The notes under the pieces are model-generated. The model worked only from the letters and a program-made list of their open reading frames with translations. It did not search any database and was not told where the DNA came from. Positions 9,104-46,600 of a stretch of DNA of 64,000 nt are shown piece by piece (position 1 is the first letter of the stretch; every line of letters begins with the position of its first letter). The DNA lies in the IMG/VR virus record IMGVR_UViG_2561511197_000003, positions 2,976 through 66,975 of that record; one strand, written 5' to 3'. Source of the DNA: a virus (Duplodnaviria; Caudoviricetes). The translations under genes and the position numbers were made by a program.

Positions 9104-9655
9104 TTGAAGCCGACCCCTCAAAAAACTGACTTCGCTAGCCAGCTCGAAAAACACCGGCGGCACCTGTTTGCGCAGGCCTTGAACCTGGTGAAACATAATG
9201 AGGCCGACGCGGAAGATCTGGTACAGGACACGATGATACGCGCGTGGCTGAAGCAGGATTATTTTGAAGAGGGTACCAACCTGCGGGCCTGGCTCTCGCG
9301 GCTGCTCAAAAACCTGTTCATTAACGATTACCGCGACCGTAAAGGGATTTTGCTGATCAGCATCGACGCCGAGGTTGGCGATGATTTTACCCGGTACGAC
9401 TTTCTGCCTATCGCTGTGCACAGCGAAAACGATGGCCCGGCCAATGTCTTCGCCCAGCAGGTTGATTTGACAATCAGCAACCTGAGCGAGAATCAACAGC
9501 TAGTTATTCGCTATTGGATGGCAGGCTATCAGTACGATGAAATAGCCGATATAATGAAGCTGCCGATCGGTACAATTCGCTCCCGTCTTTTTTCGGCTCG
9601 CTGCAAAATGGAAGGCTCCAACCGCGACGCCGGCCGTAGGCCCAAACACGTTTAA
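9104..9655 (+). CDS. ECF-type RNA polymerase sigma factor
   Basis: Region 2 DAEDLVQDTMIRAW...NLRAWL; region 4 YDEIADIMKLPIGTIRSRLFSAR. Confidence 0.9.
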   Translation: MKPTPQKTDFASQLEKHRRHLFAQALNLVKHNEADAEDLVQDTMIRAWLKQDYFEEGTNLRAWLSRLLKNLFINDYRDRKGILLISIDAEVGDDFTRYDFLPIAVHSENDGPANVFAQQVDLTISNLSENQQLVIRYWMAGYQYDEIADIMKLPIGTIRSRLFSARCKMEGSNRDAGRRPKHV

Positions 9656-13072: not shown

Positions 13073-13149
13073 TGGGACAAAAGAGCGGATTCGAACCGCT
13101 GACCTCCGGAAATGGCAATCCGGTATTCTACCACTGAACTACAATCGTC
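13073..13149 (-). tRNA. Atypical tRNA-Gly(GCC)-like gene with 8-nt anticodon loop and encoded CCA
   Basis: D arm GTTC-AGTGGTA-GAAT; anticodon arm CCGGA-TTGCCATT-TCCGG; T arm AGCGG-TTCGAAT-CCGCT. Acceptor stem has two U-U mismatches. Confidence 0.65.
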
Positions 13150-20068: not shown

Positions 20069-20295
20069 TGCTTATGAACTCGGCAATCAAATACGGCTAT
20101 TGTCCCGGCTGCGGCCAGCCACACGCTGACATCAAACTGGAAACGACGCTGTGCGCTCCTTGTGAAGTGACACACTCCCCTGAGAATCGGATGCGTGAAT
20201 ACGTAACGTATTGTGAAACCTACAACACGTACCCCAACCGGGCCTTCTATGAGGAATGTAAGCAGAAGTTAAGCCAGCCTCAACCCCAAAACTAA
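20068..20295 (+). CDS. Small Zn-finger-like protein
   Basis: CPGC...CAPC. Confidence 0.6.
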   Translation: MLMNSAIKYGYCPGCGQPHADIKLETTLCAPCEVTHSPENRMREYVTYCETYNTYPNRAFYEECKQKLSQPQPQN

Positions 20296-20319
20296 CCCCG
20301 GCAGTCGTCGGGGTTTTTT
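20294..20319 (+). terminator. Intrinsic terminator
   Basis: AACCCCGGC...GTCGGGGTT followed by a T run. Confidence 0.7.
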
Positions 20320-22823: not shown

Positions 22824-24038
22824 ATGAGCCAACTCGACTTATTCACGCCTGCCCTTACCGATGGTGAATTGCCACCCGTTGCCCTGACGCCCGAAATTGA
22901 ATCGTTGCTGGCCAAGAATGCCCCCGTAGCGATTGGGGTAAGTGGTGGCAAGGATTCAGGCGCTGCGGTTTGGGCTGTGGTCAACCACCTCAACCAGATC
23001 GGCCACACCGGCCCGCGCCTGCTGATTCACGCCGATCTTGGCCGAATCGAGTGGGCGGATTCGCTGCCGATCTGTCAGCAACTGGCCGATCTGTTTGGGC
23101 TGGAACTGGTCGTTGTGCGTCGGCCTGCTGGTGGCATGGTGGAGCGGTGGATGAGTCGATGGGATGGCAATTGCACCCGTTATGCCGATCTGGCCTGCGT
23201 CAAACTGATTATGCCGTGGTCAAGCCCAGCCAATCGGTTCTGCACATCGGAGTTGAAAACGGCGATCATCAGCCGTGAACTGACCCGCCGCTTTCCCGGC
23301 CAGCGCATTGTGTCGGTGTCAGGGATTCGTCGGCAGGAAAGCAGTAAGCGCGCGCAAAAGCCCATCTGTTCCGAGCAAGCTCGACTGACAGTAAAAACGC
23401 TGGGTACGTCGGGCGTAGACTGGAATGCCATTATCGAGTGGAAGCTGGACCACGTATGGAACTGCCACAAGTGGCACAACCTGCCCATCCACGAGGCTTA
23501 CAGTACCTACAATATGACGCGGGTAAGCTGCTGCTTCTGCATCATGTCGTCCCTGCCCGATCTGCTGCGGTCAGCGGGCTGCGAAGCCAATCAGGACGTA
23601 TACCGCGAACTGGTCGATCTGGAAATTGCCTCGACCTACGCCTTCCACGAAGATACCTGGCTTGGCGACGTGGCCCCGCACCTGCTGACCGATGAACAAC
23701 GAACAGCCCTGAGTGGAGCCAAATACGCCGCTCGTCGGCGTGAACTGGCCGAATCCCGCATTCCTGAACATCTACTCTTTACGGAAGGCTGGCCAACGCG
23801 GATGCCCACCTACGACGAGGCGGTACTGCTGGCTGAGGTTCGGCAGGAAGTAGCCGACACGGTGGGCCTGACTATCGGTTTCACCGACCCGGCCTCTATC
23901 CTGCAACGCTACGCCGAATTGATGGCCGAGCGGGCTGAAAAGCAATTCTTAGCCGACTGGACCGAAGCCAAACGCGAGTTAAAAGCCCTGAACAAACGAC
24001 TCAAAGAAGCTTATGAAGAAGCCAATCAAACAGTATAA
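22824..24038 (+). CDS. PAPS-reductase-family (PP-loop, Fe-S) protein
   Basis: Motifs VSGGKDS, RFCTSELK, GIRRQESSKRA and RVSCCFC; N-terminal QLDLF. Confidence 0.85.
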   Translation: MSQLDLFTPALTDGELPPVALTPEIESLLAKNAPVAIGVSGGKDSGAAVWAVVNHLNQIGHTGPRLLIHADLGRIEWADSLPICQQLADLFGLELVVVRRPAGGMVERWMSRWDGNCTRYADLACVKLIMPWSSPANRFCTSELKTAIISRELTRRFPGQRIVSVSGIRRQESSKRAQKPICSEQARLTVKTLGTSGVDWNAIIEWKLDHVWNCHKWHNLPIHEAYSTYNMTRVSCCFCIMSSLPDLLRSAGCEANQDVYRELVDLEIASTYAFHEDTWLGDVAPHLLTDEQRTALSGAKYAARRRELAESRIPEHLLFTEGWPTRMPTYDEAVLLAEVRQEVADTVGLTIGFTDPASILQRYAELMAERAEKQFLADWTEAKRELKALNKRLKEAYEEANQTV

Positions 24039-24543
24039 CCTGTTTGGTGGGGTTGATCTGGTGCAACCGACTGAGCCAAAACCCAGCCCCGACCTGAAAC
24101 AACTGTCAGGCTCCAGATACGCCCAATATGGACTGGACGATATAAAGGAGCCCGCCGATAAAGGCGAAACGATTAGGCAACTATTCGACCCTTGGCTGTG
24201 CGTCGATTTTCCAATAACGGAACCCCACATCTACCTATGCTTCGGCTCCTTCGCGCTGAGCGGTCGAACGGTGGCGGCATTCAGCCAGCAACAACCCATC
24301 GACGGAATCACCGAAACGGAGTATTGCTTCAAATGTCGGGAAGTACGCGCGCGGCTCCACTACCATGTGAAGGGCGTTACTACTAACTATTTCGGTGAGC
24401 CCTTCGAGCCAAATCTTGGTGTATGTCCTGAATGCATCGAATGGGCGGCTGACTATCTGGCCCGACGTGCCGACGAGCAAGCGGCCAAGCTGGCCGAACC
24501 GCCACCGCCGCCACCTACGGGCACCCAACTTAGTCTTATCTAA
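24013..24543 (+). CDS. Zn-finger-like protein with terminal clamp-binding-like motifs
   Basis: CFKC...CPEC; N-terminal QYNLF and C-terminal QLSLI. Confidence 0.6.
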   Translation: MKKPIKQYNLFGGVDLVQPTEPKPSPDLKQLSGSRYAQYGLDDIKEPADKGETIRQLFDPWLCVDFPITEPHIYLCFGSFALSGRTVAAFSQQQPIDGITETEYCFKCREVRARLHYHVKGVTTNYFGEPFEPNLGVCPECIEWAADYLARRADEQAAKLAEPPPPPPTGTQLSLI

Positions 24544-24842: not shown

Positions 24843-25958
24843 ATGAAATTCATTGTCTCATCTTCGGTTCTTCTCAAGAACCTACTGAACCTAAGCGGCG
24901 TGATCGCCGCCACTCCCATCGTGCCCGTCCTCGAAAACGTCCTGCTGCGGATTGAGGATGGTCTGATTACCGTTACGGCGTCTGATTTGCAGCTAACCAT
25001 GACCGTACAGGTTCCGGTGGATGCCTCCGCCGATGGCTCGGTTTGCATACCGGCCAAGTTGCTGCTCGATGTGCTCAAAAGCCTGCCTGAGCAGCCCATC
25101 ACCATCCATATCAACGCTAAAACCTTTGCCACTGAAATCCTGACGGATAACGGACGTTTCAAACTATCGGGCCAGAATCCAATCGACTACCCCAAACTGC
25201 CCAAGGTGGCCGCCATTACCACGGTTGAACTTCCATCGGGTACGCTACTGGATGCCATTACCCACACCGCCTTTGCGTGTAGTAACGACGATCTGAAAGC
25301 GGCTCAGACTGGCGTATATGCCCTGTTCGCTCCATCAGGTACAACGTTCTACGCCACCGATGGCCACAAACTCGCGCGCTACACCCGCACCGACGTACAG
25401 GCCCTTACCGAAAGTTCGTTCATCATACCCCGAAAAGCGATGGCCCAACTAAAAACGGCCCTTAGCGAAGGGGTTCCGGTGACGCTGGAAGCCAACCAAT
25501 CCCATGCTTCCTTTTCGTTTGGCTCGACGCAGCTCATTACCCGGCTGATCGACGAGGTATACCCCGGCGTTGAGGCGATGATTCCGACGACCAACACCAA
25601 TGATTTAGTTATAGGCCGCGCCGATCTGGTCAACTCGTTGAAGCGAACGATGATCTGCGCCAACCGCACGACGCACCAGATCAGACTGTCGTTGAAGAAA
25701 AACACGTTGACAATCTCAGCGGAAGACCTCGACTACGCCAATGAGGCCAGTGAAGTACTGCTTTGCGAGTACGAGGGCGACGATATGGAGATTGGTTTTA
25801 ACGCTAAAATTCTCACTGATCTGGCCACTACGCTGTCAGCAAAGATGGTCACGCTGTCGATGTCCACCTCAAACCGACCCGCGCTGCTCACTCCGGTCGA
25901 TAAGGACGAACACGAGGCCATTCTGATGCTCATTATGCCCTTGCAATTGAACGTGTAG
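24843..25958 (+). CDS. dnaN: DNA polymerase III beta sliding clamp
   Basis: MKFIVSSSVLLK...VTASDL...ATDGHKL...IGFNAK...LIMP; 371 aa, Bacteroidota-type. Confidence 0.95.
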   Translation: MKFIVSSSVLLKNLLNLSGVIAATPIVPVLENVLLRIEDGLITVTASDLQLTMTVQVPVDASADGSVCIPAKLLLDVLKSLPEQPITIHINAKTFATEILTDNGRFKLSGQNPIDYPKLPKVAAITTVELPSGTLLDAITHTAFACSNDDLKAAQTGVYALFAPSGTTFYATDGHKLARYTRTDVQALTESSFIIPRKAMAQLKTALSEGVPVTLEANQSHASFSFGSTQLITRLIDEVYPGVEAMIPTTNTNDLVIGRADLVNSLKRTMICANRTTHQIRLSLKKNTLTISAEDLDYANEASEVLLCEYEGDDMEIGFNAKILTDLATTLSAKMVTLSMSTSNRPALLTPVDKDEHEAILMLIMPLQLNV

Positions 25959-26026
25959 CGCGCGCCAGTACCCAATTAATTCATTCGTTTTCTCACCCAA
26001 AGCAGTCCGCACGTCGGGCTTTTTTT

Positions 26027-26794
26027 ATGACGTTTTTTCAACAACTCGCCGCCCTGAATCTGGTCGGCACCCTCAATTTTTCGGTAACGAAAGTGGGCGA
26101 CAAGATGACCGTATCGGTTCGGCTCGATAACCCATCCTGCGGCGATGCCGCGCGCAATCAGATTCGGCCCCTTACGTCCACTGGCACCCCTGTTGAACTT
26201 GATGCCGGTTGGTTTGACGCGATCACCAAGCCGATGCAATCCGCATCGGGATTGATGGTCGATATGGAAACCCATCAGAAGTCACTCGACAAAGCGCGGC
26301 AGGATTCAGCGATGAATAAGTCGAACGGCACCAAATCGACTACGCCTACCCCTGCCTCAAGTGCAGCTAGTACCCCTGCCAAACCGACCACGACGGTAAT
26401 CTCCGCTGTCGATAAAAAGACGCAGGTGTACATGGATGCCATGCAGAAGGTCGATAAGCTACGGGAGGAAGGCCGGTACATGGACGCGCTGTCCGAGTTG
26501 CCCAAGAGTAAGGATTACCCCAACAACAAGATTCTGGAAAAGCGACGTACCTGGCTGGCTAATATGGCAATGGGCGGGGTGCTGATTCCTGATCCGTGGC
26601 CGATTGATCCCGCCACCGAGAAACCCGCTGCGGCAACAGCAACGCCCGAAACTCCGGCACCAGCACCAGCCCCCACCGTCGAGGCCGGGCCAGTGGCGAC
26701 CGATAATCCGGCAGATGCGCCTGACGAGTCAGCCGACGACGACAAAGAGCCGGAGGAAAATCTGGACTCACCCCTTGTCGAAGAAACCATTTAA
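26027..26794 (+). CDS. PRTRC system protein E
   Basis: MTFFQQL...PLTSTGTPVELDAGWFDAITKP with a low-complexity tail; first gene of the cassette. Confidence 0.85.
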   Translation: MTFFQQLAALNLVGTLNFSVTKVGDKMTVSVRLDNPSCGDAARNQIRPLTSTGTPVELDAGWFDAITKPMQSASGLMVDMETHQKSLDKARQDSAMNKSNGTKSTTPTPASSAASTPAKPTTTVISAVDKKTQVYMDAMQKVDKLREEGRYMDALSELPKSKDYPNNKILEKRRTWLANMAMGGVLIPDPWPIDPATEKPAAATATPETPAPAPAPTVEAGPVATDNPADAPDESADDDKEPEENLDSPLVEETI

Positions 26795-26818
26795 TCACCT
26801 TTTTTTCAACGCAAAGCG

Positions 26819-27037
26819 ATGTTAGTAAACACTGATTTAGTCCGAAAATTTGAGTTCAAAAAGAACAACGAAACGATTGTAATCGACGACCCCAACCCTG
26901 ATTTGAGTACCGGGGCCGTGCAGAACCATTTGGCTGGGCAATACCCCGAACTGCTCACCGCCAAGCTCAAAGGGCCGGAAATTAAGAATGACGCCTTTGT
27001 CTACACGTTTGAAACGACAATGGGTACCAAAGGCTAA
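26819..27037 (+). CDS. PRTRC system protein C (ubiquitin-like)
   Basis: DPNPDLS...YPELLTA...GTKG C-terminus. Confidence 0.9.
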   Translation: MLVNTDLVRKFEFKKNNETIVIDDPNPDLSTGAVQNHLAGQYPELLTAKLKGPEIKNDAFVYTFETTMGTKG

Positions 27038-27150
27038 TTGCCCCTGACTAATCAACCCTGATTGAAACCAATGAAACGCAGCCAAAAAGCGGCAGCGCGG
27101 ACACCCGCAGCGGGTGTCCGCGTGATTGCCCAAAAACCCGACTATACAGT

Positions 27151-28344
27151 ATGCGCACTGCACAATCACCTCGGCGATCTACTCGCTCGGTTCAACCAAC
27201 TTCAGGACGCCGCCACCGTCAATCGCCTGCACCCCCAGTCCCAACCATTAGACCTGCTGGCCCCGCCTTTCTGACGCAGCCCATTTTACCTATCCAGTTC
27301 CAATCAGATCGCATTCAGGATAGTTATGGCCGGTTTTACAAGAAGTCCGGTCCAGACGATCAGGCCAAAGAGGTCGCCGAATATTATGCTTCACTGGATC
27401 ATCTGGCTAGCCTATATAACTTTCAACCGCGCAACTGTCGGGATATGGCTTACCCGATGAATATCGGATTGAGCTTTATAGCGGCTCGTCAGCAGCTAAA
27501 AGCGATCAAACCTGACCTGACGCTAGTACTGGTGGCTCAATCTTACAAAGACGAAAAAAAGTACCGTGCCACATTGGCTACGGTGCAGGCAGAAGATACA
27601 GATATATCGCTCTACAACGTACCGGTTCGCCCCTACCAACGCATGATCGGAGATCGGCGGCAACGTCAGCGATTGAGATTACTAGACAGCCTGTTTGCCT
27701 TTCTGTATCGCCGGGTTGCCTTCCCATATTGTGGGCCTGACGACTCAAGCTACTTTGATGACATACTAAGCTATACCATCGACGAAGATGGGATATATGC
27801 ATCAGAGCGCGACGCTGAGGAAGAATACGGTGATCACTACAAAGCGGCGAAGCGTAAAGTTTTCGATATACGTCGGCTGTGTTTACAGAGCAAGAAGCGC
27901 TTCAATCATGAGTATCACGTACAGCAACTCAGTCAACGGGTCAATTCATTCAAACCAAAATCAGAGCTTGATCAAGACCTCTTGATCGCCGCTCAGAAAC
28001 TGGTGGAAGTTGAGTGTCATTTCCCGCACCATTCGTTTAAGATGGCAACTGACAACCACCATCTTGAGATTAAAGACCGGGCGGAGGGTACCATTTTCGT
28101 TGATCAAATTGCAACATTCGTCTGGTCAGATAACGACGAATTCTATAGCCTTTACACGCAGTTTCTCGATGACGAGATGAGTAGTGGCTGTGATCAGGAA
28201 CCACTGCAATCTGTACAGGTCTTTGACTCACCGCAAGCCAAAGACATCCACGCTGACTATCAAGAATATTACCAACTACTGCTGGACGCCGTCGGCGATC
28301 TAGGTGCAGTACTATCCCGAATGGATCATGGAAAATGTGAATAA
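27151..28344 (+). CDS. PRTRC cassette protein (protein F position)
   Basis: 397 aa between proteins C and B; start uncertain. Confidence 0.6.
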   Translation: MRTAQSPRRSTRSVQPTSGRRHRQSPAPPVPTIRPAGPAFLTQPILPIQFQSDRIQDSYGRFYKKSGPDDQAKEVAEYYASLDHLASLYNFQPRNCRDMAYPMNIGLSFIAARQQLKAIKPDLTLVLVAQSYKDEKKYRATLATVQAEDTDISLYNVPVRPYQRMIGDRRQRQRLRLLDSLFAFLYRRVAFPYCGPDDSSYFDDILSYTIDEDGIYASERDAEEEYGDHYKAAKRKVFDIRRLCLQSKKRFNHEYHVQQLSQRVNSFKPKSELDQDLLIAAQKLVEVECHFPHHSFKMATDNHHLEIKDRAEGTIFVDQIATFVWSDNDEFYSLYTQFLDDEMSSGCDQEPLQSVQVFDSPQAKDIHADYQEYYQLLLDAVGDLGAVLSRMDHGKCE

Positions 28345-29074
28345 ACTGTTTCTGGATTTCGCTATCCCCAAATTTATCCTGTTGTTCTACCAGCAGCCGA
28401 ATAGCTACCAACAAGATCAAGACGATGACGGATCATTCTATGTCGAATCCTGCGACATAGACCCTGTAACGGGTCTGATGAGGAATCACCACCCACTGGC
28501 TGTGGAAGAATCGCAGGCACTGGGCAAACGTCTGAACGCCTCGCATGACCGAATTACCGGCTTTCTGCTGCCCAAAGGGCTTTTGCCAGAAAACGTATTG
28601 TACCTAAACCCACGCGGGGAAGGGAAAGTAATCTGGTACACCAAACCGGGGAAACGTACCCTGTATTTTAGCGATTATCGTAAAATTAAGGATGGAACAG
28701 CCCATGTACCTGGGCTACTTTGGTGCGCTACTGCCACCACCTTGCGTCTATTCGCCCTCAAGCCGGGTGTTGTCGAAGGCCGACCGGCCTCTAACACCCA
28801 GTTATACTACGCCCCCTTTTACAATACAAATTCGGCTGGGGAAGTGTGCCAGGGCGATGTTGACATCGACGTGACGGGGGAGTCTACGCTTGAGGATTTT
28901 ATCACAGGATGGGAGCGGTTTTACTTCGATAGTCGCTTTTCCCACCTGAGTGGCAATCTACCCATTAAAGGGAATCTGGATGAACTGTGGAACAGCCTGA
29001 TCGGTACAGAAACGCCATTCCCCCACGACTTAATGATCTCGACGAAACTCACACTAAAAGACCTACTGGCATGA
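28328..29074 (+). CDS. PRTRC system protein B (prokaryotic E2 family D)
   Basis: LLPENVL, VIWYT, VPGLLW, LYYAPFYN...VCQG, WERFYFDSRFSH. Confidence 0.88.
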   Translation: MENVNKLFLDFAIPKFILLFYQQPNSYQQDQDDDGSFYVESCDIDPVTGLMRNHHPLAVEESQALGKRLNASHDRITGFLLPKGLLPENVLYLNPRGEGKVIWYTKPGKRTLYFSDYRKIKDGTAHVPGLLWCATATTLRLFALKPGVVEGRPASNTQLYYAPFYNTNSAGEVCQGDVDIDVTGESTLEDFITGWERFYFDSRFSHLSGNLPIKGNLDELWNSLIGTETPFPHDLMISTKLTLKDLLA

Positions 29075-29862
29075 CTTCGGTACATCTTACTGCTAAATAC
29101 CTGATTAGCCCTCAAAACCCCATTACAGTCAACCTTATCGGCGCTGGCGGCACCGGTAGTCAGGTGTTGACTGCACTGGCCCGAATGAATGTAGCCATGC
29201 TGGCGCTTGGCCACCCCGGTCTGTATGTATGTGTATGGGACCACGATACGGTCAGTCGCGCCAACATGGGCCGACAGTTGTTTGCTCAGTGCGAGGTTGG
29301 CCAGCACAAGGCGGTAGCTCTGATTAACCGCACAAACCGGTTTTTCGGCACCAATTGGAAAGCGATTGCTCACAAGTACGAGAAGGCTAATTTATGGCAA
29401 AGCCCCTTCGCGCATGGGTCGGCGAATGTGACCATTAGCTGCGTCGATACTGTGGCTGCCCGTTTCCAGATTGCCGATACGCTCAAAACCCTTAACGTTC
29501 ATGAGGACCACCGCGACCGCCCCTATTACTGGATGGATTTTGGGAATAGCCTCACCAGCGGGCAGGTCATGCTCTCAACTGTTGGCAAGCACAAGCAACC
29601 GGACTCCAAGAAATTCAAGACGGTAGCGCATCTTCCGTTCATCACCGACGAGTACGCCGACGCGCTGCGGAACACAGTCGAGACAAACGAACCCTCCTGC
29701 TCACTGGCCGAAGCCTTGGAGCGCCAGGATTTATTCATCAACCCGACGCTGGCGCAAATGGGCTGCAAACTGCTGTGGAACCTGTTTCGGGAAGGTATGA
29801 CACCCAACCGGGGTTTCTTCCTGAATCTGGCTGACTTCCGCTCGATGCCCTTGCCGGTATGA
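29071..29862 (+). CDS. PRTRC system ThiF/E1-like protein
   Basis: IGAGGTGS, DHDTVSRANMGRQ, CVD, DFGN, PSCSLAEALERQDLFIN. Confidence 0.92.
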   Translation: MTSVHLTAKYLISPQNPITVNLIGAGGTGSQVLTALARMNVAMLALGHPGLYVCVWDHDTVSRANMGRQLFAQCEVGQHKAVALINRTNRFFGTNWKAIAHKYEKANLWQSPFAHGSANVTISCVDTVAARFQIADTLKTLNVHEDHRDRPYYWMDFGNSLTSGQVMLSTVGKHKQPDSKKFKTVAHLPFITDEYADALRNTVETNEPSCSLAEALERQDLFINPTLAQMGCKLLWNLFREGMTPNRGFFLNLADFRSMPLPV

Positions 29863-30137
29863 CCCCACCCCTCCTATCCGATCTGCACCAGCAGACACTT
29901 AAGAAACTACTGGCCAGCCTGACGATTCCCGATAAACCGGCGTACCTCGTCGTCGGGCTGGCCGCGCGCAAAGCGGAGGTACTGGTTAAGCTGGCCATCA
30001 CGGATGCCGCCTCGTCCGTCGAAGAAGATATTGCCCACACGCGCCGGGAGCAGGCCGCTATCTGCTTTCCCGACTTCGACCGTATTCTACTTTACCGTCG
30101 CAACGGCTCAGGTACGTTGGACGACATCACCAACTAG
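29859..30137 (+). CDS. Hypothetical protein
   Basis: ATGA-coupled to the ThiF gene. Confidence 0.6.
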   Translation: MTPPLLSDLHQQTLKKLLASLTIPDKPAYLVVGLAARKAEVLVKLAITDAASSVEEDIAHTRREQAAICFPDFDRILLYRRNGSGTLDDITN

Positions 30138-31885: not shown

Positions 31886-31910
31886 GCCCCGGCCCTCGCC
31901 GGGGTTTTTC
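31886..31910 (+). terminator. Intrinsic terminator
   Basis: CCCCGGC-CCTC-GCCGGGG followed by TTTTT. Confidence 0.7.
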
Positions 31911-34656: not shown

Positions 34657-37600
34657 TTAATCGTTTGTCAGCTGGCCACGGACCACGCGGGTCACTGTGC
34701 TAGGCAGGCCTACCCACTTCGAGACAAAATCAGTCGATTTTCGCACGAACGTATCCCCCGCCTGAGCGGCTTTCTTCTCATCCTCTTCGGTCATGTACCG
34801 GCCTGCTGCCAGCACCGCATCGACGCCCTGCTGCATGTTCGACAGACTGGGCACCTCGTACAGCTGCTCATTGCCACCAACACCATCGACCTTATTGATG
34901 GCGTACTCGACGAACAACGTACCCAGCCCGGGGAACGTACCTGACACGTTACGCAGCGAGTCGAACATCACGCGTTCGGTCAGCTTATCGGCTTCGGGCG
35001 GTTCCCCACCCGACAGCATGGCCATGATCACCGACGTACCCGCCGACACGGCGCCGACGTACACGGCGTTGGCCAGCACTCCGTAGCCCAGCGTCTGCAG
35101 GAGTTTGGCGCGCGCGGCTTTGGCCTCCGGCGTTCCCGGTGTGGCCTTCGTGTAGCCGATCATCGCCCGAATCACCAGCCCCGCAATTTTCTGCTGCTGG
35201 CTGCTGTACATGCCCAGCATTCGGGTAAAGAACTGCTCGGAGAGTTGCATCGGGGTACGTTCGGCCAGCGAATCCGTGTTATAGGTTTCGCTTACCACCC
35301 GCTCGGTCAGGTGGGCCACCCGATCCCACCACGCATCGCTGTTCTGCTGTAGCCCTTCGGCCGAGGCCTGCAGCTGCGCCGCCTGCACGTAATACAGGAT
35401 GGGCGCCCGGTCAGCCCGGCGCATGGCCGACATAAGGCGTTCCCCCGCGAAACTGTCGTACTTCCTGAGCAGCTTCTGCGCGTTGCTGAGCGTCGCGCTG
35501 TTGAGGCCCAAATCGTCAAAACTGACGTCACCGACGTGCTGCTGATTGGAGTCGAGTAGCCGGTTGATTACCGCGCCGAAGCGCCGTAGCTGCTTGGCCT
35601 TGGCCGCTTCGTCCATGCCCTGACCCAGCAACGCCTCGATGTAGGGCCGCTCGACTGTATCGCTCTCACTAATCAGCCCACCGTGAAGCCCCTGATCGGA
35701 GCCGTCGGCGCGTACCGACGCCCCTACACCCGCATCGCGGTATGCCCCGGCGGTTAGCTTGGCCAGCAGGCCCAGCGCCTGCGGATCGCGCAAATGCTGA
35801 TCCTCAATAATGCCCTGCCCCATCGCCGAGGCGGCCGTGCCCAGCTGTTTGGCAGGCAGGCCCAGGTTGAGCGAGAAAATCGAATTCGTGAACCGGCGCA
35901 TACCCCGCTCGACGCTCGTCAGGCCGGGGTTGTCCTGCCGAACCCGCATCATGCGCTCCCGGTAGCCACGCAGTACTTCGTATTCGCGCGTCAGGTAGCC
36001 CACCAGTCGCGCTTTCTGCGGCCCCTGGTACTTGTTTTCGATGGCGTCGCGCAGGTGCATGACGTTTTCCGACAACCGACCGTATTCCAGCAGATCAGCG
36101 ACCTCCTGTTCGTAGCGGATCATCGTTTGCAGCGGGTTGCCCAGCACGATGCCCTTCGCTTCACGCGACCGCGCAATCAACCGGCCCGACTTATCGTAGA
36201 GCTTCATGCGGCCCTGCGCCTCAGCGCGCGCGTTGGCATCCCCGCCCGTCACCCGAATGGGGTAATAGAACGTCTGGCGGGGCCGGTTTGCCGCCCGTCT
36301 GGCCCGGTTCTCGTCGCGCCGGTCGCGGGCTTCCGCCAGCCACTCCTGCGCGCCGGGCGCCAACGCCGGGTCGATGCCGGCACCCGCTTCGGCAGGCTCG
36401 ATGAGTCGAGGTGATTTACCACCGGTACGTTCGCCTACCCGCTCGAAGGGTTCGCCCGGTTTGAGCGCATTGTTTTCTTCTTCGAGCAGATCCGCTACCT
36501 CGTTGACGTTGAAAAACGAAATCAGCGCCTCGTAGCCTTCCACCTCCCCGGTTTTGGCGTCGTTACCCTCCACAAAGCGCGACAGCAGGCGATTGTATTC
36601 CGCCCGGGGTAACATCAACGTGTCGAGCCGATCGCGCGCGGCATCGTAATACTGGCCACCGTGGTCGAGTTTTTTCGACAACGTACCATCGGCATCGCGC
36701 TCGTAGAGTTCATTGGGACGCGGCTCAGCGTCGAACACGTGAGTTATGCCACCCGTGGGTGACGACCCCTGCTGGGTTTCAGCCAACGCAACCGCTTCCA
36801 TCACCGTCAGGAGCGGCACCTGCTTTTCGACCAGCACCACCTCACCCGTATTGGGATTGAAGTCATACGACTGCACCCCGATCAGCTGCTCCTCGAAGGG
36901 AGCCAGTAGCCGGGCGGCCGTAGAAAGCCGGTCCTGCAGGTACGTTTTCGCCGTACCCGCGCGACGTGATCCTTCGAGCTGCGGTTCATGGATCAGGCGT
37001 TTGATGCTGCCCTTCGTGTCGTCGATCAGATCGGCGAACGTAATCAGGTTGGTCCACGACTTGAGCCAGTCTGAGACAAAGTTGGTCAGCCGACCAACGT
37101 ACCCAGTATCATCACTGCGCTGGCCAAAGCCTGTACTCACTGCATTGGCCAGCGTTGCCTGATCAAGCGTCAGCACCTGCCCGTTCGCCAGATGGTAATG
37201 CGTCTGCGGATGGGTATAGGTGAGCTTTTGGGGTGAGGTCAACTCAAAGCCCGTCTGCTCGGCGATCTGTTTGATGTACGACTTATCGGCGTCGGTGTAG
37301 TTGACGGGGGACATTTCCCATAAATCGCGCGAAACAGCCGGTTGCTTCAGCCCCTGCACGGTGAGTTGCGTATTGGTCACCGGCGGGTTGCGCAGCTGCT
37401 GCTCGGCCACCGATAGCAGGTTGGCCAGCGTCGTGGGTTCGGCCCCCAGCACACTGTTGGCAGACGGGGCGGTCGGCTCAAGGGTCGAGGGGGCCGGATC
37501 AGGCGCCAACTGGAATTGGGGTACGTTGCTGGGGGGCGCAGGCTGAGCGCGATTACCCGGCCCTTCCATCAACCCCAACACCTGCCCGGCCCAACGCGCC

Positions 37601-40600
37601 AGCTTCGCATCGGCTAGTTTCTCATTCGAGGTCCAGCCGATCGCTTTTCCAATTTTGGCAAACAGTTCGTCGAGCCACAGCCGGAACGCCGATTTACGGC
37701 CCGACACTTTAAACTGTTCGCCCTTGTCGCCGATCGCCGTTTCGAGCGCTTCGATTTCCAGTTCGGGAGTGGACAGCGTTTTGTAATAGCTGTCGGTACG
37801 CAACCGGGCGAAGTAGCCTGAATCGCGCACCAGCGCCACGCCTTTGGTGTACAGATCGGGAAACTTGGTTCGCGCCGCTTCGGCCCACAGGCCGCCGAAC
37901 TCGTGAAAGACGGAATTCAGGTTTGCCTCGGGCGAGAAATACACCTTGCCCTGCCAGCGGAAGGCGAGCGGTCGACGAGTGGCAAGGCGAGCCCTGTCTG
38001 CTGGCTGCAGTCGGCTCAGGCTTTCCTGCAAGGCCTGCCCGTACGCGGCCGGATCGGTGATGGCGTCCACGCCGAAGGCCTGCGCCAGTCGCGCGACAGC
38101 CTGCCCAATGGGGGCAGTTGACCGGGCAGGTACGTTCCCCTGCTCGGGAGCCAGTTGGAAAAACGGGCTATCCGGCTCGGCAAACGGGTTGGAGGTATCG
38201 CCCAGCGAGTCCATCATGCTAGCCAGCCCGGCATCTTCCTGCGTGGCCGACGTACCTGGCGCGGTCAGGCCCGTAACCTGCTGGTAAAACTGCGCGGCTT
38301 TTTCGGCGGTCTGGAACTGGAAACCGGGGATGGCTCCTGATCCCTGAAACCGCGAGTAGTAGCCGCCCAGCGACTTGGCCTTATCCAGCGCGGCGTTGTA
38401 CTGCTCAGTACTGAGCCGCCCGTTAATGGGCACCACGAACGTGTCCCGTTGATTTTTGGCGTGAAACCCTTTGACGGGTTCTTTCAACGGTGCGTTTTCC
38501 GCTGTAACAGAGGAAGCCGCAGCGGTCTGCGGTGCAACAACCGGGACGGCAGCAGCAGCCTGAGCTGCTGGCTGGGCGACTGGCTGCGCTGGCAGTACCG
38601 ACGAGCGCGTTGATAAATCCACCCGCCCAGCATTTACCCGCTGTACGTCGGCTGAGGTGATCGTTGGCCGTTCAGGCACCTCGATCGTTTCCAACTCATC
38701 AAACAGTTCATTGATGTCTTTGACGTCGCGCAGATCAATTTCTTCCACCGACCCCGGATTGGCATCAGGCTGCAATTTATCAAGCACCAGCACCTGCGTG
38801 TTGACTGCCGTACCCGCCCGCCCGAACGTACTGCCGGGCAACAATATGCGCGCTGTCAAATGAACACTACTGGTAAGACGCCCCAGTTTTGGGGGCGTAT
38901 TCACTTCCTCCAACCACTTGTCAAACTTAGTATTGAAGGCGCCGACTGGTACCAGTGCCACCACCCGGCTACCGACGACCGAGTGTTGCTCAATCGCCTT
39001 TTTGACGTGCTCCAGTGCCGTTTTACCGGCCTGCCCATACGGCGGGTTCATGACCGTGACCTGGTACTTGTTCACCGGGTTATGATCCTCGTAAGCCTCG
39101 TTGAGCTTACGGCCATCGGTCACCAGCGATACTTTACTGAACAGTTCCGACGACGGTTCAATGACCGTTAGACTGGCATCTTCCGGCACCCAGCGGGCAA
39201 TGGCACCGTGGCCAGCCGAAGGCTCGTTTACGCGGTCGCCTGTTTTGATGTTACCCCACTCGACCATCTTCATGCCCAGCGGTTCAGGCGTGGCAAAGTA
39301 ATCGACGCCTTCGTAGGCTTTGGTTTTGGCGGTACGTTTGAGTTGTGCGAAGTAGTAGGTTTTTGCCTGATCCCACGGCGAAATCGGCTTGGTGAAACTG
39401 CGGTCAAATGCCTTACCGCCCGTACCATCCTTCTCAGAGGGTACGTACTCGGTGGTTGCCTCGAAGCCTTCAATGAACGCCTGCTTCAACCCACGGGCCA
39501 TTTCACCCATGCCCAAATTCTCAGCGGTACCGGCCCGGCCAGCAATCGTATCAGCAAAAGCCCGACGCTCCCAGTTGGTGCCCGTATTGAAATACACGAA
39601 CATACTGTTGGAGTCGGGATGCTGGCCAGTCCGGTAAATGCGCCCTTCCTGTTGAATCGAGCGGGTCGGTTGCGTGGGCAGGCCTAGGTTCACCAGCACG
39701 CGCGGATGCCTACCCGTCGTATCGTGGCCCGACCAACCCGCGTTGGCCGCCGCATTGACCAGAATGATGTTGGCCTCGGGCTTGGTGTCGTCGTTGAAGT
39801 TTTTGACGGTGGCGGTTTTAGCCGTTTTGCTCATGCCTCCCTTTAGGCGAGCCGCCTGCGGGAAGGCTTCGCCCAACGTGTCAAGGGGTGCCCCGTAATC
39901 AGCGGCGTTGATCGCGTAGAGGTCCGGTCGACGTTCGTAGAACTCCCGAATCAGCGTGCGAATCGAAATCGATTTTTGGCTACCATACGGGCCAGTCATT
40001 ACGTTGCCTTCGGGCAAATCGCCGTTTTCATTTTCGAAATGGAACGGCGCAAAGCCGCCCCCTTCCGTGTAATCGTAGAACACGACGACTTTCTTACCCT
40101 GATCCAGCCACTGTTGGATGTACGGTATGGCTTCCTTGGCCTTAATGGCTTCCAGTAACCGCTGGCGCTGAAGGTAATTGAACCGCTTTTCCAGCAGATC
40201 GATTAGCCCCGTATACCGCTTGTTATCGCCTTCCCGAACGAAGGCCAAACCCTCGTCGATCAACGTACCCACAGCTGACGGGGTGAGCGCAAACAAACGC
40301 TGATAGTCTGAATCAATATCCAGTACGCGGGCGCTGGCCACGCCTTCTTTTTGAAGCCAACCGTTGAAATTGCGCTCCATCAGCGACACGTCGACCGACA
40401 CATCGGGCTGCGTCAGGCGGTTATACCGCATCCGGTAGCCGAAATGCTGCACCATGAAGGCCTCATAGCCCGAGGGTACGTTGTAGGCGGTACTGTCGGA
40501 TTTTCCGTAGCTGAACAAATAGCCATTGGCCCACTGGATTGTTTCGCGGTAGGCAAAGGGCGTGGCCGATAGAAACACCGCGCGCGGACGGACGGCGCCC

Positions 40601-43600
40601 TGATTTTCTTTAATCAGGGCTTCATTCGCCTCCAGGTAGTTGTCCCACTCCCGTTCTTTCAGCGATCGTTCCTCGGAGAGTGCATCCAGTTCGGGTTTTA
40701 ACAGTTCCCGTTGATAAGCCGTATCCCGGCTTCTGAACTGGTCGTCAATCTCTCTGATGCGGGCCCGAATTTCGGAGAGCCGGGCAAACAACTCTTCGTG
40801 CTCCACCATCGTCCGATTCCAGGCCGAATCAGGGTGATAGGTATGCACCTGAAACGCTTTTAGGGCACCGGTCACGTCGGCCGACGACGACTGCATGAGG
40901 TTGTGCGCTTCATCGGCCAGCAGCAGATCAAACCTACGGGTAGCCAGCGCGTTATTACCGGCAAAATTGGCGTAGGTCGTTACATTGATCCCCGACCCGG
41001 CATCTTTCATGTCGTCGAGCGCGCGAATGGTCAGCCCCAGCGCAGGTGCTGACATGACCCACTCGTTCATTACGCTGACATTGGGCACGATCACCAGTGC
41101 GCTGGTTTTACCCTGCTTGGCAAAGCGTTTGATGATGCCCAGCCCCAAGAAGGTCTTGCCGGTGCCGGTGCCGTTGGTAAACAGCACTCCGTACCCGTCG
41201 GGCTTGGACAATCGCGCTTCGGCAAACTGCACATCTTCGCGCTGGCCATCCATCAGGTAGGGCAACGTGGCGTCAATGTTTGCGCGGTTGCCAACGACAA
41301 CCTCAATGGATTCGGCCTGCTGCTGAAGGGCTAGCTTTTCTGCACGAGTAAGTGAACGGCCTTCCTGAGCAGCTGCGATAGCTCGCTGCTCTCCGAGTCG
41401 GTCAGGCTGAATTCCTGCGTCGCCAAGCGCAGGGCTTCCGCTACGGTCGTCACTTCGGGCAGTGCTGTCCGCAGGGAATAAGCTTCCGAACTCGTTATAA
41501 ATTGGGTTAGCGCGTGATGTTCTACCAGTAGCGGCAGGATCTGCTGATACGCGCTGATCACCCGGGCGCTGTGTCCCTGACTCGTCAACCAGTCGGATTC
41601 CTTCGCCAACGCCTGGCTCAAGGCTTCCGGCGTCGGCTGGTTGAACATCGTTAGTGCCCACTGGCTGAGTAGTGGTTGTTCGTGGGCTATCTGGTTCCAC
41701 ACGGTTAGCGGTACCTGCGTCATTGGGTTGTGTATTTACATCATCAAGGGTAACGGCCCGCACCGTGCGACCGTCATCCATTTTATCAAACGTATCGTCG
41801 TCGACGGTGTTCTGGTAGGCACCGTAAACAGATTTCAGCGCCGCCAAGTCGTTTTCGGTCACCGGGCCCTGCAGTTTCACAAAGTCCCGAACCACCGCCG
41901 TAAACTTGTGTACACCCTGCTGAAATTTCACCGACAGGTATTCGGCACCGAGGGCCAGAAGCTCGGGGTCGGCAAACGGATTGCTCGACAGATTGCCCCG
42001 CATCTGACGCAGCTTTTCCTTTAACCGGGCGGCCAGATCAGCCTCACGCTGGGCCAGTTCGTCGAGTTTATTGACGGGGGCTGGCGTGTCGGTTTGAGCC
42101 GGAAGTGAGTCAGTAGTCGCGTTTTGTGGGACAGAATTGCCATTTACTGCGACAGTTGACCCGTTTTCTGCAACAGATGACCCAAACAGCGCGGTTTGTT
42201 GCGTGCTGGCGGCAACGGCCTGCTCGATCGCGCGCAGCTTATTGGCCTGGGCGGTTTTCTGCCGCTCGACGAGTGCTGCGCGCTGCTGTTTGGCCCGATC
42301 AATCGCCTGACGGGCGGCAGCTTCCGCCTCCAGTCCGGTGGTGTTACCAGCAAACAGATCAGATTGGGTCGCAGCTTTGGGATCGGCCGCAAACAGATCA
42401 CCCGTCTGCAGCCGGTTGCGGTTTTCGCGTTCAAGCCGGGCAATGGTGCGGTCGGCTGCATCGATCTCGCGTTGCAGGTTCGCCAGTTCAATGTCGAAGG
42501 GAGCCGTGGCCTCGGCCGTGCGCGGATCAACTACCGCCTCAGCCGCAATGGCTTCGTCAATTTCTTGGAGCAACGTGGCCGCCTGTAACCCGATGTCGGC
42601 GAGTTGTTCCTGCTGATCAGCCGGGCTTTCGTTCCTCGATTCCTGCGCACTAAGGGGCAGATACGAGGCAGTAGCGATCCGGCGATTACCCGCTTGGTCT
42701 GTGTATGCATACGAAAAGCCAGGAAGGTTCTTAGCTGAATACGCCGTAGCTACTTTACTACCCGGACTATCTTCCTTAATCTCATAGAAACCGGCCGCTT
42801 CCCAATTACCATCAACCAGTATTTCGGAAACAATACCAACGACACGCCCAGTCTTGCGTGTTTTTACACTACTGACAACGTACCGCTGTTCCTCATCAAC
42901 TTGAAATAGATCGCCTTTCTGAACCGTGGCTAGCAACCAATTAGCAATAGTTGGCCCATCATTGGTTGCAACGACGTCCTCATAACTGCTTTGTGTTGTT
43001 ACTGTCGGCTGATCACTTGGCGCGACCGAGTTAGTTTCGTTAACTAGGGTGTCTGTTCCGGCGCTTGGTTGTCCGACGGCTTCGGCAGCATTTTCGAGGT
43101 CCGCGACCGCAGACTCAAGAGCGACGAGAGTTTGTCCGACGGTGGTACCGCCCCCGGCCCCTGACTCAGTCGGGCTGTTAGTAAGGCCTCCGTCAGCTGC
43201 TGGCGCGGGCTTTTGTTGTTGGATGGCTTCATAGATGGGAAGAACACCGGCATGGCCAACGGCCAGATCGGATAAGAAACGGTTAAGTAAAACTAAACGT
43301 TCGGGCGTGTAACCCATTAATCCTGAGTTCACGAATGAGTAAACGGCAGAAAACTCATCCAGCAACGGGGCTAGATCGTAGCCCGCCTGCGAGTCCCAGT
43401 AACCCAGCGTGCGCATTTCTTTGAGCAGCGCCTCGACTTCCTCATCGGAATAGCCGTTGACCAGGTCGAGTACGTCGCGGGTTTCGGCGGCCAGCAGATC
43501 GGGGTTTTCCTGCCATTGGGCCGCTACCTCGGGGTCGAGTTCAGCCAGCACGTCGGCCTGCATCTGGGCCGCCGCCTCATCGGCCGCGCCTTCGTCGGCA

Positions 43601-46600
43601 TACTCCCGCAGTTGCTTACTCGGGGTGTTATCGCCCTGAAAGCTTACCACCATATCAATCAACTGCTGCTCCAACTCGTCGGGGCGAGTGTCCAGATCAC
43701 GGCCAGCGGCCTCCCACAGCGAGGTGGCAATTTGATCGATACCCGGTTGCCGGTTGCTTTGATCGATGTAGTTGATATAGACGTTACCTCCTTTGGGCCC
43801 AAGGCGCGCATTCTCACCAGCCATGCGGTCGAAATCGTTCCGGTTGATCTTGCCGCGCTGGGCAAAAAACTGCAATACCGCCCCCCGAAAATCGGTGGGT
43901 ACGAATGTTTTGGCAATGGACTGTTTGGGGCGTTTTAGCCGTTTTGCCGCGATGGCGCCACGGACTGCACCAGCAACACCCGGGTTAGCGGGTTGTTGTC
44001 CATCTGCTCCCTCATTCGCTGCAAGATCAGCTCCCGCTGCTGCACGCTCTCGCTCAAGCGCTTCGAGTAATCGCTCGTCGGGTCCTGCTGCGAGAGCAGC
44101 TGCTGCAAGGTCCGCTGCGTGTTGTGCATCGTCCTGTAGTTGCTCACCCGCCTGCGCGCGTTGTTGTAATCCAAGCGTTGATTGTACTGCGTCAACGTAT
44201 TGAGTAGCTGGGTCTGATGCGACCGGGTTAGCCGCCGGTACTGACCCGGTGGCTGCAGGTTGGGAAGTCGATACGACATTGATTAGTTGTCCGTTAGAAT
44301 CGGTGAACTGAAGGGTTGCTTTACGCTCGATTTTCCATTTATCGCCCTGCCGAACGAGCGTTCCCGGCTGGGTCGTTACCAAACCCGCCGCGCGGTCCAT
44401 GCCAGCCAGCGGGTAGGTGGCTCCATCCTGCAAATAGCTGTAGGGGTCGCTCAGGGCAAGCGCCGCCGCTTCTGGACGTACCTGGTACTCCGCCCTGTCT
44501 GCACCCGTTGGCGTGATCTGGTAAACACCCCGCTCGCTATCGGGCGTTAGATTACCGCTGCTGAAACCGTCGCCCAGATCGACCGACGAGGCGTACATAG
44601 ACGGGGTTGTCGCCGCTACCGGGCTACTCACCGGAACCGGGGTGGACGCAAGGGGCATTGTTGACACGCCGGGCAGGCCTTCGGCCAACAGATCGACATC
44701 GCCCCCCATCGGCTCAGCGGCCATCGGATCGACTGTAGTGGGGTCAGCCAGCAGCGGGGTCAGCCGGTCGGCCACTTCCATGAAGGGGGTCGCATACCGT
44801 TCGTTGGTGGCCAACACCGGGCCAGCCGCCGCCAGATACGCCGCCGCCAGCGCGCGCGTTTTGTCGAGGGCTTTCTTTTTACCCGGCGAGCGCGTCGCCC
44901 CCAACGTTTCCAGATCACCCACCAACTGCACGCCATCGGCCAGCAGGTTTCCCTCGACGCTGTTGTCAGGTTTGGTATAGCGACTCGTTTCGTAGCCGGG
45001 CTGGCCCGCCTGCACGCCGGTGGCCAACCGTACGTGCTCGTCGACGCTGGGCAGTGGATCGCCATACGACTGTTCGACGGGGTTGCGAACAGCCGGTACG
45101 TACGTGCCGGCATCGTCGAGGCGCGCCGGGCTGGTCACCTCCCCGCCCGTCTGCACCAGCGGCCGGTAGAGCCGCCCCTGCGGATCAGTCAGTACGACGG
45201 CGCCCGTTTGGGGGTCAGTCAGCTGACGGCTCGGTTTGAAGGTATCGGTATAGGTCGTATCGCCGTACTGCTGGGCGATAGCGCGCAGGGCATCCTGCGT
45301 GTAGGTACGTACCCCGGCCCGGCTCTCGGTGTCGGTCGCAAAGCGTTTGAGGGTTTCACCGACGACGTTCTCAATCGCGCTGCGGCGCGCGGCCATATCC
45401 AGTTCCGCCTGATAGACGGGACCACTGGGCGAATCGACGAGCCCACCCAGCTGCTTTTCGCCAGCGGCCAGTGCCATCTGCGCCTTGATCTGCTCGGCCA
45501 TCGTGGCGTCGGGACGGGCGACCTCGGCCGTCAGCTGCGCCTGGGTATTCTTTGCTTCATCGATCTGAGCCGCCTGCTGGGCGAGGCCTTCGCGCGCTTC
45601 TGACACGGCAAATAGTGTATACCGATCATTGTCGTTGTAGGTATCCACGTCAGCGAATTCAGCGGCCAGATTGGCCATGCGGGCCGCTTTCTGGACGAGG
45701 CCGGCGTGATCGTCGGGTGTCAGCTCCCCGCGCTGCAGTTTATCATCGAGCACACCCAGCAGCTTCAACCGGTTGGGGCTATCAGGGCGAATCAACTCGT
45801 CAGGCGATAACCCCCGCGCCAGCCCGTTTCTCACGTTGGCGCCAACGTACCCAAACAGAGTCGGCTCCATCGTTTTTTGCTGGAACGCCGCCCCCGGCAC
45901 GGTGCCGACCAACGTACCCAATATGGTGCCGTACACCGAATCAAAGGCGTACCGGCCAAAGCCCGGATCGTCGAAACGGCCCGTCGTATCGGCTGACTGC
46001 AGGTTGAGCATGATGTCTTTGGCTCCGTTCTCGACGATCGACTGCCAGAACTCCTCCCCGCCTTCGGGTATACCCTGTTCGACGAAACCACGCGCCACTC
46101 GCGCACCACCCCGACGCAGTCCTTCGGTCATTTGTACCCAGGCTTTAAGTTTGGCCGGGTTGCGCAGCAACTCCAGCGATCCTTTGGCGGCTTGCTCGGC
46201 GGTTTCGACCAGCGATTCCGCCGTGAGTTTGCTACCCGACCGAAGCAACGCCTCCACCGCTTCAGCCGTTGAGGCCTGCCGGATGGCAGAGCGGGCCGTT
46301 TGGGGCGCGACGCCCATGGCTTTGGCCAGCGCGCCCATATTGGCCGTTTCGATCAGCGCGTTAACCGCCGCCACCGGTAGCGCGTACAACGTGGCGTGCA
46401 TGGGGTCATAGCCCTGCTGCATCGCCTCCCGCTGGTACATGGGAAAGGTCTGCAGAAAGGCCGATGCGCTCGTTGCCCGGGTGGCCATCGACGCGGCCCC
46501 TTCGAGGGTATTGACGGCGAGCTGTCGTTCGGCCGCCGTCGCGGCCCCGCGCAGGGCCGCGCGGGCGCCACCGGTAGCCAGCGACGCCCCGCCCATGGTC

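Follow-up and report, generated by a model that had tools for sequence, protein, structure and literature searches.

A PRTRC-type ubiquitin-like cassette without a JAB peptidase behind a beta-clamp gene in a temperate prophage, and a possible link of PRTRC systems to the sliding clamp

We analysed a 64,000-nucleotide stretch of viral DNA (Duplodnaviria; Caudoviricetes), taken from positions 2,976 to 66,975 of IMG/VR record IMGVR_UViG_2561511197_000003 and hereafter called the window, which corresponds to C1:4024961-4088960 of a 6.94-Mb, two-contig genome. An intact five-gene PRTRC-type module, without JAB and without ParB, lies there in the replication/recombination block of a temperate prophage of about 99.9 kb. 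In the list of open reading frames (ORFs), six co-directional genes on the + strand fill positions 24843-29862: dnaN, PRTRC E, PRTRC C, a gene at the F position, PRTRC B and ThiF. A sequence-only reading of this DNA had placed a PRTRC E-C-F-B-ThiF cassette directly behind a phage beta clamp, and the ORFs and their family matches confirm that arrangement. The related loci used for comparison comprised 79 loci fetched from IMG/VR (viral loci) and 11 loci from 9 other Bacteroidota genomes (genomic loci).

The first gene of the array, dnaN (24843..25958, + strand as all genes of the array), encodes a beta sliding clamp of 371 aa that contains all three Pfam clamp domains and scores 248.8 bits with TIGR00663 (cut-off 137.65). 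It is followed by E (26027..26794; 255 aa), which matches PF19556 at 147.2 bits and TIGR03741 at 45.1 bits (cut-off 37.95), and by C (26819..27037), a ubiquitin-like beta-grasp protein of 72 aa ending in MGTKG (PF14454 Prok_Ub, 88 bits; TIGR03738, 57.5 bits vs a cut-off of 45.95). For the F-position protein (27151..28344; 397 aa), 10 of the 11 genomic loci contain an F-position ORF that phmmer matches, at E-values of 2e-8 to 5e-25. The E2-like carrier B (28304..29074) reaches 100.9 bits with PF14460 Prok-E2_D, for which the threshold is 25, and the E1-like adenylating enzyme ThiF (29071..29862; 263 aa counted from the ATG at 29071) reaches 247 bits with TIGR03736 (cut-off 144.75). When the PRTRC TIGRFAM hidden Markov models (HMMs) are taken as the measure, the assignment made from the letters held for ThiF, C and E, which exceeded their cut-offs, but not for B, which missed the curated cut-off of TIGR03737 (102.4 vs 131.45 bits), nor for F, which had no match. 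Judged by a PF14460 score well above threshold and an invariant catalytic Cys, B is a divergent member of its family.

The genes are closely packed, with 68 nt between dnaN and E, 24 nt between E and C and 113 nt between C and the F-position gene; the latter overlaps B, and B and ThiF overlap in ATGA. B may start either at GTG 28304 or at ATG 28328. The longest ThiF frame (28987-29862) opens with GTG, and ATG 29071 is the likely start, as it overlaps the B stop codon (ATGA) and agrees better with the HMM and with the relatives. A weak hairpin followed by seven T residues (26004..26020, + strand) separates dnaN from E and is possibly a partial terminator, and two strong terminator-like hairpins (20294-20315 and 31886-31905) stand on either side of the whole array. 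Terminator-like sites of the region did not exceed shuffled sequence (22 vs 16.6 +/- 4.3), and a promoter scan was likewise at the level of shuffles (12 vs 11.6).

The residues expected of a conjugation pathway are in place. In an alignment of 10 ThiF sequences the invariant columns include the GAGGTGS loop, R68, D126 and Cys210 within a PSCSLAE block, and a profile search of the genome returned this ThiF as its sole TIGR03736-type gene. Cys182 of B, the Cys of VCQG, is invariant in 91/91 B proteins, and His214 is found in 86 of the 91. G69 and G72 of C are invariant (81/81) and K71 is present in 79 of the same 81 proteins. The GTKG end of C, the VCQG of B and the PSC of ThiF had been picked out from the sequence before, and all three are present.

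The JAB peptidase (protein A, TIGR03735) gave zero matches genome-wide, in a search whose control profiles were likewise silent everywhere; as B and ThiF overlap, there is also no space for a JAB gene between them. Protein A was found in 0/79 viral and 0/11 genomic loci, with a search seeded from one phage protein only. For the PRTRC-type ParB (TIGR03734), the genome search gave a sole match below the cut-off (126.7 vs 278.6) at 3.68 Mb, outside the prophage. The sequence-only reading had reported neither a JAB nor a ParB gene, and these searches agree with it. It had further supposed that the exposed C-terminal Gly of C dispenses with maturation by JAB. Consistent with this, 88 of 89 C ORFs end in Gly (75 of them in GTKG), and the ubiquitin-like proteins (Ubls) of JAB-less cassettes are Gly-terminal throughout (88/88). 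The exception is the C protein of Ralstonia phage Dina, which continues for about 63 residues beyond GRKG and whose cassette includes a JAB gene; the JAB-bearing BgVeeders33 carries the same extension of about 63 aa, there after GTKG. Dina and BgVeeders33 are related to each other, so that JAB together with the extension represents one lineage against many.

The cassette is common among uncultivated viruses. A ThiF relative is encoded by 158 of 166 pattern-matching IMG/VR stretches, and ThiF was matched by 5 of 50,697 deposited phage records; it is rare among the latter and not rare in IMG/VR. In an even phylum sample, 10 of 401 genomes, this one included, encode a PRTRC ThiF above the cut-off. 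All 11 genomic loci show E-C-F-B-ThiF with B abutting ThiF and no JAB, and the same layout recurs across the fetched IMG/VR loci, so the JAB-less, ParB-less five-gene form is the standard one in this part of the family. The statement, made from the sequence alone, that PRTRC cassettes are mostly described from plasmids and integrative and conjugative elements (ICEs) thus overstated their rarity in phages, as is seen from RefSeq annotation, from reports in print and from the 158 IMG/VR contigs. RefSeq lists E-C-F-B-A-ThiF in Ralstonia phage Dina as gp02-gp07 (NC_055026). A 2026 paper, in the text available, describes a full cassette in the Burkholderia gladioli prophage AB2 under the label "ParB/ThiF-partitioning cassette", its function being unstudied, and according to the available text of a 2026 preprint, mutations in a Phocaeicola vulgatus prophage recurrently concentrate in PRTRC B, a hotspot linked to a diversity-generating retroelement. 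[quoted passage not shown] Phage PRTRC cassettes are therefore already known and the variant described here is widespread; what is new is a mechanistic lead toward the clamp.

With the PRTRC system (TIGR03734-03742) the window shares the E, C, B and ThiF families, a fast-evolving helical protein at the F position and the gene order E-C-F-B-...-ThiF, which is that of Dina minus A. The E2-like Cys with a His C-terminal to it also corresponds to the table for type 6d (PMC1779556, as far as its text was available). It differs from canonical PRTRC in the lack of JAB and ParB, the free terminal Gly of C, the scores of F and B below TIGR03742 and TIGR03737, respectively, and the clamp gene at its head.

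Linkage of dnaN to the cassette is recurrent. Of the viral loci, 69 had enough sequence upstream of E to be evaluable, and in 21 of them E is immediately preceded by a co-directional dnaN at a distance of -11 to +199 nt (L083, missed by the rule because of an E-C gap of 671 nt, would make 22); the same holds for 1 of the 11 genomic loci. The linkage is thus not unique to this genome, an outcome that the sequence-only reading had named as counting against its proposal. Among the upstream neighbours of E, dnaN is the commonest (21/75 loci, vs 4 for the next cluster); DUF932 lies upstream of E in 6 of the 11 ICE-type genomic loci. In the literature searched, no paper was found that combines "PRTRC" and "clamp".

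On the ThiF tree (92 rows, with L083 labelled non-adjacent in error), dnaN adjacency needs 11 changes, at least 3 of which are forced by well-supported branches. The window ThiF falls into a clade of 18 rows, mostly ICE-type loci, with a support of 99 in the Shimodaira-Hasegawa-like approximate likelihood ratio test (SH-aLRT); its sister there is L037, which has no dnaN within the 3 kb upstream of E, where the contig ends. The two further DnaN copies of the same genome share 67% and 64% identity with the window DnaN, and those of 11/11 same-genus genomes share 64-67%; the other PRTRC-linked clamps reach only 21-32%. In a DnaN tree of 32 rows, which left out L118-L121, L124 and L093 as well as bacterial clamps beyond the host lineage, the window DnaN groups with the host lineage (SH-aLRT 96) and is separated from two groups of viral clamps. 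On these identities and this topology, the window dnaN is derived from the host lineage and was captured separately from the other PRTRC-linked clamps. Because it groups with the host lineage, the dnaN adjacency must have arisen separately here, and a separate capture of the clamp argues for selection on the arrangement, beyond inheritance alone.

A second indication comes from protein E. Its model (predicted local distance difference test, pLDDT, 74) has a small N-terminal domain of beta-sheet, continues with a long helix and a helical hairpin, and from about residue 182 runs out into a disordered, acidic tail; Foldseek found zero matches to this fold in the PDB at E <= 0.001. Directly after the hairpin, E proteins have a common short peptide, x-[GP]-[STD]-[LMI]-F, which is frequently the very C-terminus; examples are QTSLF, QNSLF, QASIF, APSLF and HPSLF. 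Of 87 unique E proteins, 71 contain the pattern [STDGN][LIM][FW] in the tail (10.3 expected after shuffling of the tails), and 35 contain the stricter form with Q-x or x-P (1.1 expected from shuffles). In an alignment of 35 sequences the Phe of this peptide, present in 32/35, belongs to the five positions of the entire protein that are invariant or nearly so, and its column falls in the region modelled as disordered. The motif is similarly frequent with linked dnaN (19/24) and without it (52/63). The E protein of Dina ends in GLDLPI.

Proteins that bind the bacterial beta clamp do so through the consensus QL[SD]LF, through hexapeptide variants (e.g., those of Hda and Pol IV) or through the MutL-type form Qxx[LI]xP. 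We presume that the E peptide corresponds to the consensus and the hexapeptide variants: it reads x-[GP]-[STD]-[LMI]-F, often QxSLF, and lies in a disordered tail, at its end or close to it, whereas Gln at position 1 is found in only some E proteins. In the window E, the alignment column is occupied by GGVLIP (residues 183-188; 26573..26590, + strand), a degenerate version of this clamp-binding-like peptide, which we take to resemble the MutL-type variant and which numerically counts as a degenerate copy.

Our preferred reading, held tentatively and at a little less than an even chance, is that the cassette is a functional E1-E2-Ubl module which E would bring to the sliding clamp during phage replication. 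We lean to it because the family scores and invariant catalytic residues agree with such a module, dnaN adjacency is recurrent, the E motif is conserved and the neighbouring genes belong to replication and recombination (in the prophage Erf, an RNase H-like protein, an HTH_36 protein and an AAA ATPase; in the related loci an SF2 helicase, a topoisomerase, a single-stranded DNA-binding protein and VRR-NUC). By analogy with homologous E1 and E2 enzymes, ThiF would adenylate the already exposed Gly72 of C, C would then be held as a thioester on Cys210 of ThiF and be transferred to Cys182 of B, and B, perhaps guided by the fast-evolving F, would attach C to a target lysine. E would tether the system to the beta clamp via the short clamp-binding-like peptide in its disordered tail, so that tagging would take place on replicating DNA, with E itself, a clamp-bound client or the clamp as the target. 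The host-derived DnaN of the phage, encoded just upstream, may be the preferred platform.

As far as its resemblance goes, the E motif supports an action at the clamp rather than a tagging of the clamp. That the Ubl is covalently attached to the phage DnaN or to the host clamp, either to switch the partners of the modified clamp or to disable the host clamp while the phage clamp escapes, seems to us quite unlikely. Such a bacterial counterpart of PCNA ubiquitylation would agree with the dnaN linkage and the E motif, and a separately captured, diverged clamp (64-67% identity to that of the host) would suit a resistant replacement as well as a dedicated substrate, but the majority of PRTRC loci lack their own clamp gene and the adjacency is explained equally well if E merely docks on the clamp. 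The eukaryotic clamp PCNA undergoes ubiquitylation and PIP-box-dependent modification. If E docks by a short peptide and the Ubl is attached there, the clamp-centred logic would be the same by analogy, although clamp, E3 and motif share no homology between the two.

Protein F is the most divergent member of the cassette. It had zero matches in NCBIfam (including TIGR03742, for which the control of the genome search was silent everywhere), Pfam and PHROGs, it is 11-31% identical to the F-position proteins of its relatives, and zero columns are invariant in 22 sequences. Its model (pLDDT 75.8; predicted template modelling score, pTM, 0.66) shows a mostly helical body with a basic, disordered N-terminus. 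Foldseek against the PDB returned nothing at E <= 0.001, and the best hit in the wide VIA comparison (PprA; Z 5.2, 82 residues aligned, root mean square deviation 3.2) is within background. The nearest structure rows in the Atlas are named PRTRC protein F, yet their TM-scores are just 0.34-0.36. Since this subfamily lacks conserved charged residues, its sequences argue for F as an adaptor rather than as the enzyme suggested by Iyer et al. (PMC1779556, in its accessible text).

The divergence of F is one reason to consider a conflict system, in which the cassette tags a variable host defence protein or a protein of a rival mobile element (anti-defence) or serves the lysogen by tagging invaders (defence, Bil-like), with the fast-evolving F and B reading the targets. 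The mutational hotspot in PRTRC B and its link to a diversity-generating retroelement in the Phocaeicola vulgatus prophage (2026 preprint, in the text available) would fit this, as would reverse-transcriptase genes near the cassette in 9 related loci; in these loci, which are viral, the RVT_1 gene precedes ThiF by about 6.5 kb (e.g., L094:3315-4322), and no reverse transcriptase was seen in the window. The characterised bacterial Ubl systems also act in phage-host conflict, in so far as the sources covered describe them (Bil, CBASS Cap2). We nevertheless regard a conflict system as unlikely. PADLOC indicated no membership in a defence system, with weak generic E1-domain similarity (<=25 bits) as the sole result for the PRTRC components and B, C, E and F unmatched; the cassette lies among replication genes and not in a defence island; and the conserved E motif and the dnaN linkage would be left unexplained.

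Bil (BilABCD), the Cap2/Cap3 pathway of type II cyclic-oligonucleotide-based antiphage signalling systems (CBASS) and Bub are biochemically characterised bacterial Ubl conjugation pathways. According to the portions of the literature covered, they have in common with the window cassette an E1-like adenylation domain and an E2-like carrier, a Ubl (in Bil and Bub) and a location on mobile elements or islands. In the window, by contrast, the components belong to other families, the E1 and E2 parts are two small, separate proteins, the cassette has E and F in addition, and the genes are phage-encoded among replication genes.

The element that carries the cassette is an integrated prophage. A 37-bp direct repeat, which is the 3' part of a tRNA-Leu(GAG), occurs at C1:3989255-3989291 (within 3989209-3989292) and C1:4089101-4089137, just outside the window, and an integrase gene (window 62627-64000) adjoins the right att repeat; from repeat and integrase together we conclude that about 99.9 kb are integrated. 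That the DNA is a phage element, as the sequence-only reading had it, is thereby corroborated. Just right of the window follow host genes for a protein with a type IX secretion system (T9SS) sorting domain, for Porin_10 and for LpxK, which we take to point to Bacteroidota. GC content varies between 48 and 64% in 2-kb windows of the 64-kb stretch, vs 56% for the genome.

Its description as crAss-like could be kept in part. A protein of 1,347 aa matches Crassvirus muzzle families (PF25731, 114 bits; PF25729, 27.6 bits), and a 532-aa protein resembles Crass_capsid clusters by language-model features of the Atlas (0.98; 220/256 features shared), but the Crass_capsid HMM (PF23898) found nothing in the genome at E <= 1 and the muzzle protein had zero tblastn matches in 50,697 phage records. 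Two Pfam families with neighbouring accession numbers, which belong to herpesviruses and are unrelated, had no match either. Besides itself, the 532-aa protein had one homologue among 5.8 billion proteins. Nine of 10 virion-side proteins were without a PHROG match and 10/10 others without a Pfam match; sequence searches of the PDB were blank for the muzzle protein, the 532-aa protein and a protein of 817 aa. In a giant ORF of 4,186 aa (34657-47220, - strand), which adjoins the muzzle-like protein and two proteins of 520 and 1,325 aa without known family, only SF2 helicase domains were recognised (ResIII and a Strawberry-notch-type C-terminal domain). When the giant ORFs were scanned for DxDxD, a motif of the RNA-polymerase type, a single, uninformative DIDSD turned up in the 4,186-aa ORF. 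Neither a DNA polymerase nor a DFDxD-type RNA-polymerase motif was found, and in view of the missing DNA polymerase the phage probably relies on the host replisome. The muzzle match, the capsid look-alike, the genome of about 100 kb, the giant virion-side ORFs and the Bacteroidota host are shared with crAss-like phages; the integration with an integrase, the GC content, the unmatched Crass_capsid HMM and muzzle tblastn, and the missing DNA polymerase and DFDxD-type motif set this phage apart. We thus describe the element as temperate and distantly crAss-like; the evidence goes no further. In the literature searched, no paper was found that joins "crAss-like" with "ThiF" and "ubiquitin-like". 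At window 13073-13148 (- strand), beside tRNA-Pro(GGG) and tRNA-Met, ARAGORN reports a tRNA with a four-base anticodon (gcca), which could be frameshift-suppressor-like or an artefact.

Eleven related viral loci have a ParB_N-methyltransferase fusion gene downstream of ThiF, at a distance of about 8 kb (e.g., L048:17227-18534), and these fusions may be the "ParB-related" partner of the JAB-less cassettes. Together with the label under which the available text of the 2026 paper presents its cassette ("ParB/ThiF-partitioning cassette"), they would speak for a partition or maintenance module, as the name PRTRC (ParB-related) and some annotations imply. For the prophage this is very improbable: no PRTRC-type ParB was found in it, and with integrase-driven integration a partition system is unneeded.

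Around the cassette, the + strand block also contains an extracytoplasmic function (ECF)-type sigma-70 factor (9104-9655), which is prophage-encoded, an RNase H-like protein, an Erf-type annealing protein and a protein related to 3'-phosphoadenosine-5'-phosphosulfate (PAPS) reductase and DndC. A second block at the left end comprises an HTH_36 protein, an AAA ATPase, DUF5131 and a polynucleotide kinase-phosphatase. The PAPS-reductase/DndC/BrxP-like protein (22824..24038, + strand) matches PF01507 at 34.4 bits, with weak BrxP and DndC matches, and begins with MSQLDLF, which is clamp-binding-like. Just upstream of dnaN, a 176-aa protein without family match (24013..24543, + strand) has the clamp-binding-like C-terminus QLSLI. 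Such ends on both genes directly upstream of dnaN hint at a clamp-tethered DNA modification. As a regular partner of PRTRC, the PAPS-reductase-like gene was ruled out, since it occurs in 0 related loci.

The DndC/BrxP-like protein, two genes upstream of dnaN, also bears on a sulfur-carrier chemistry, in which ThiF would thiocarboxylate C, as happens with ThiS and MoaD, for thio-modification of DNA or tRNA, perhaps together with that protein. ThiF-family E1s and beta-grasp carriers are so used in the synthesis of thiamine and molybdopterin (Iyer 2006, PMC1779556, in the text available). We consider such a role very unlikely for the cassette, as the cassettes always include an E2-like protein whose Cys is invariant (91/91), canonical cassettes encode a JAB peptidase, the C-terminus of C is GxKG and not GG, and the PAPS-reductase-like gene is missing from the related loci.

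Downstream of the cassette, the end of ThiF overlaps in ATGA, which suggests translational coupling, with the gene of a 92-aa protein (29859..30137, + strand) that has a homologue in a sister element without PRTRC. This sister (L126; C1:4998020-5012583 of the same genome) shares with the prophage the Erf protein (87% identity), a 289-aa protein, the 92-aa protein and dnaN (64%). Between its dnaN and the 92-aa gene, PRTRC is replaced by a ParB-like protein, a C5 DNA methyltransferase and others, the first two labels being readings of the translations and not family matches. Several of its proteins end in QLKLF or QLSFL. To judge from these sequences, the clamp in this phage lineage looks like a hub for exchangeable, clamp-tethered cargo, of which PRTRC would be one.

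Several of these observations weigh against a module that E brings to the clamp. An adjacent dnaN is missing from 48 of the 69 evaluable viral loci and from 10 of the 11 genomic loci. The dnaN of the sister element lies in the same module without PRTRC, and the clamp may therefore serve replication or DNA modification regardless of PRTRC; the picture of a cargo hub would fit an action at the clamp and at the same time weakens the notion that the clamp is there for PRTRC specifically. The canonical motif is missing from the window E, where Ile replaces the Phe in GGVLIP. The E motif is called clamp-binding solely by its likeness to the QL[SD]LF consensus and could bind something else, and the motif counts and shuffles overstate independence because the loci are interrelated. 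With zero invariant residues in 22 sequences and no fold match, the role given to F is a guess. Taken alone, the window is a modest find, i.e., one more member of a common, stripped-down subtype with a degenerate E motif.

The proposal that E brings an E1-E2-Ubl module to the clamp could extend to the whole family. PRTRC would then be a clamp-directed Ubl system of mobile elements, in which E plugs into the beta clamp through a canonical clamp-binding peptide and the E1 and E2 enzymes tag the clamp or clamp-bound proteins, and it would correspond, in prokaryotes and viruses, to the ubiquitin signalling centred on PCNA. Phages that add a clamp gene of their own, here a host-lineage clamp captured separately, would use a dedicated or resistant platform to take over replication. 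We regard this extension as possible but, on the sequences compared, doubtful. PRTRC (type 6d) is a widespread bacterial E1/E2/Ubl family, the function and substrate of which have never been tested in the literature covered. The recurrent clamp gene before the cassette, more than one origin of the adjacency and the E peptide together yield a concrete and cheap hypothesis, namely that the system works on the replisome. If this is true, eukaryotes would not have invented clamp-centred signalling of the ubiquitin type, and a means of steering replication would be common to phages, ICEs and plasmids.

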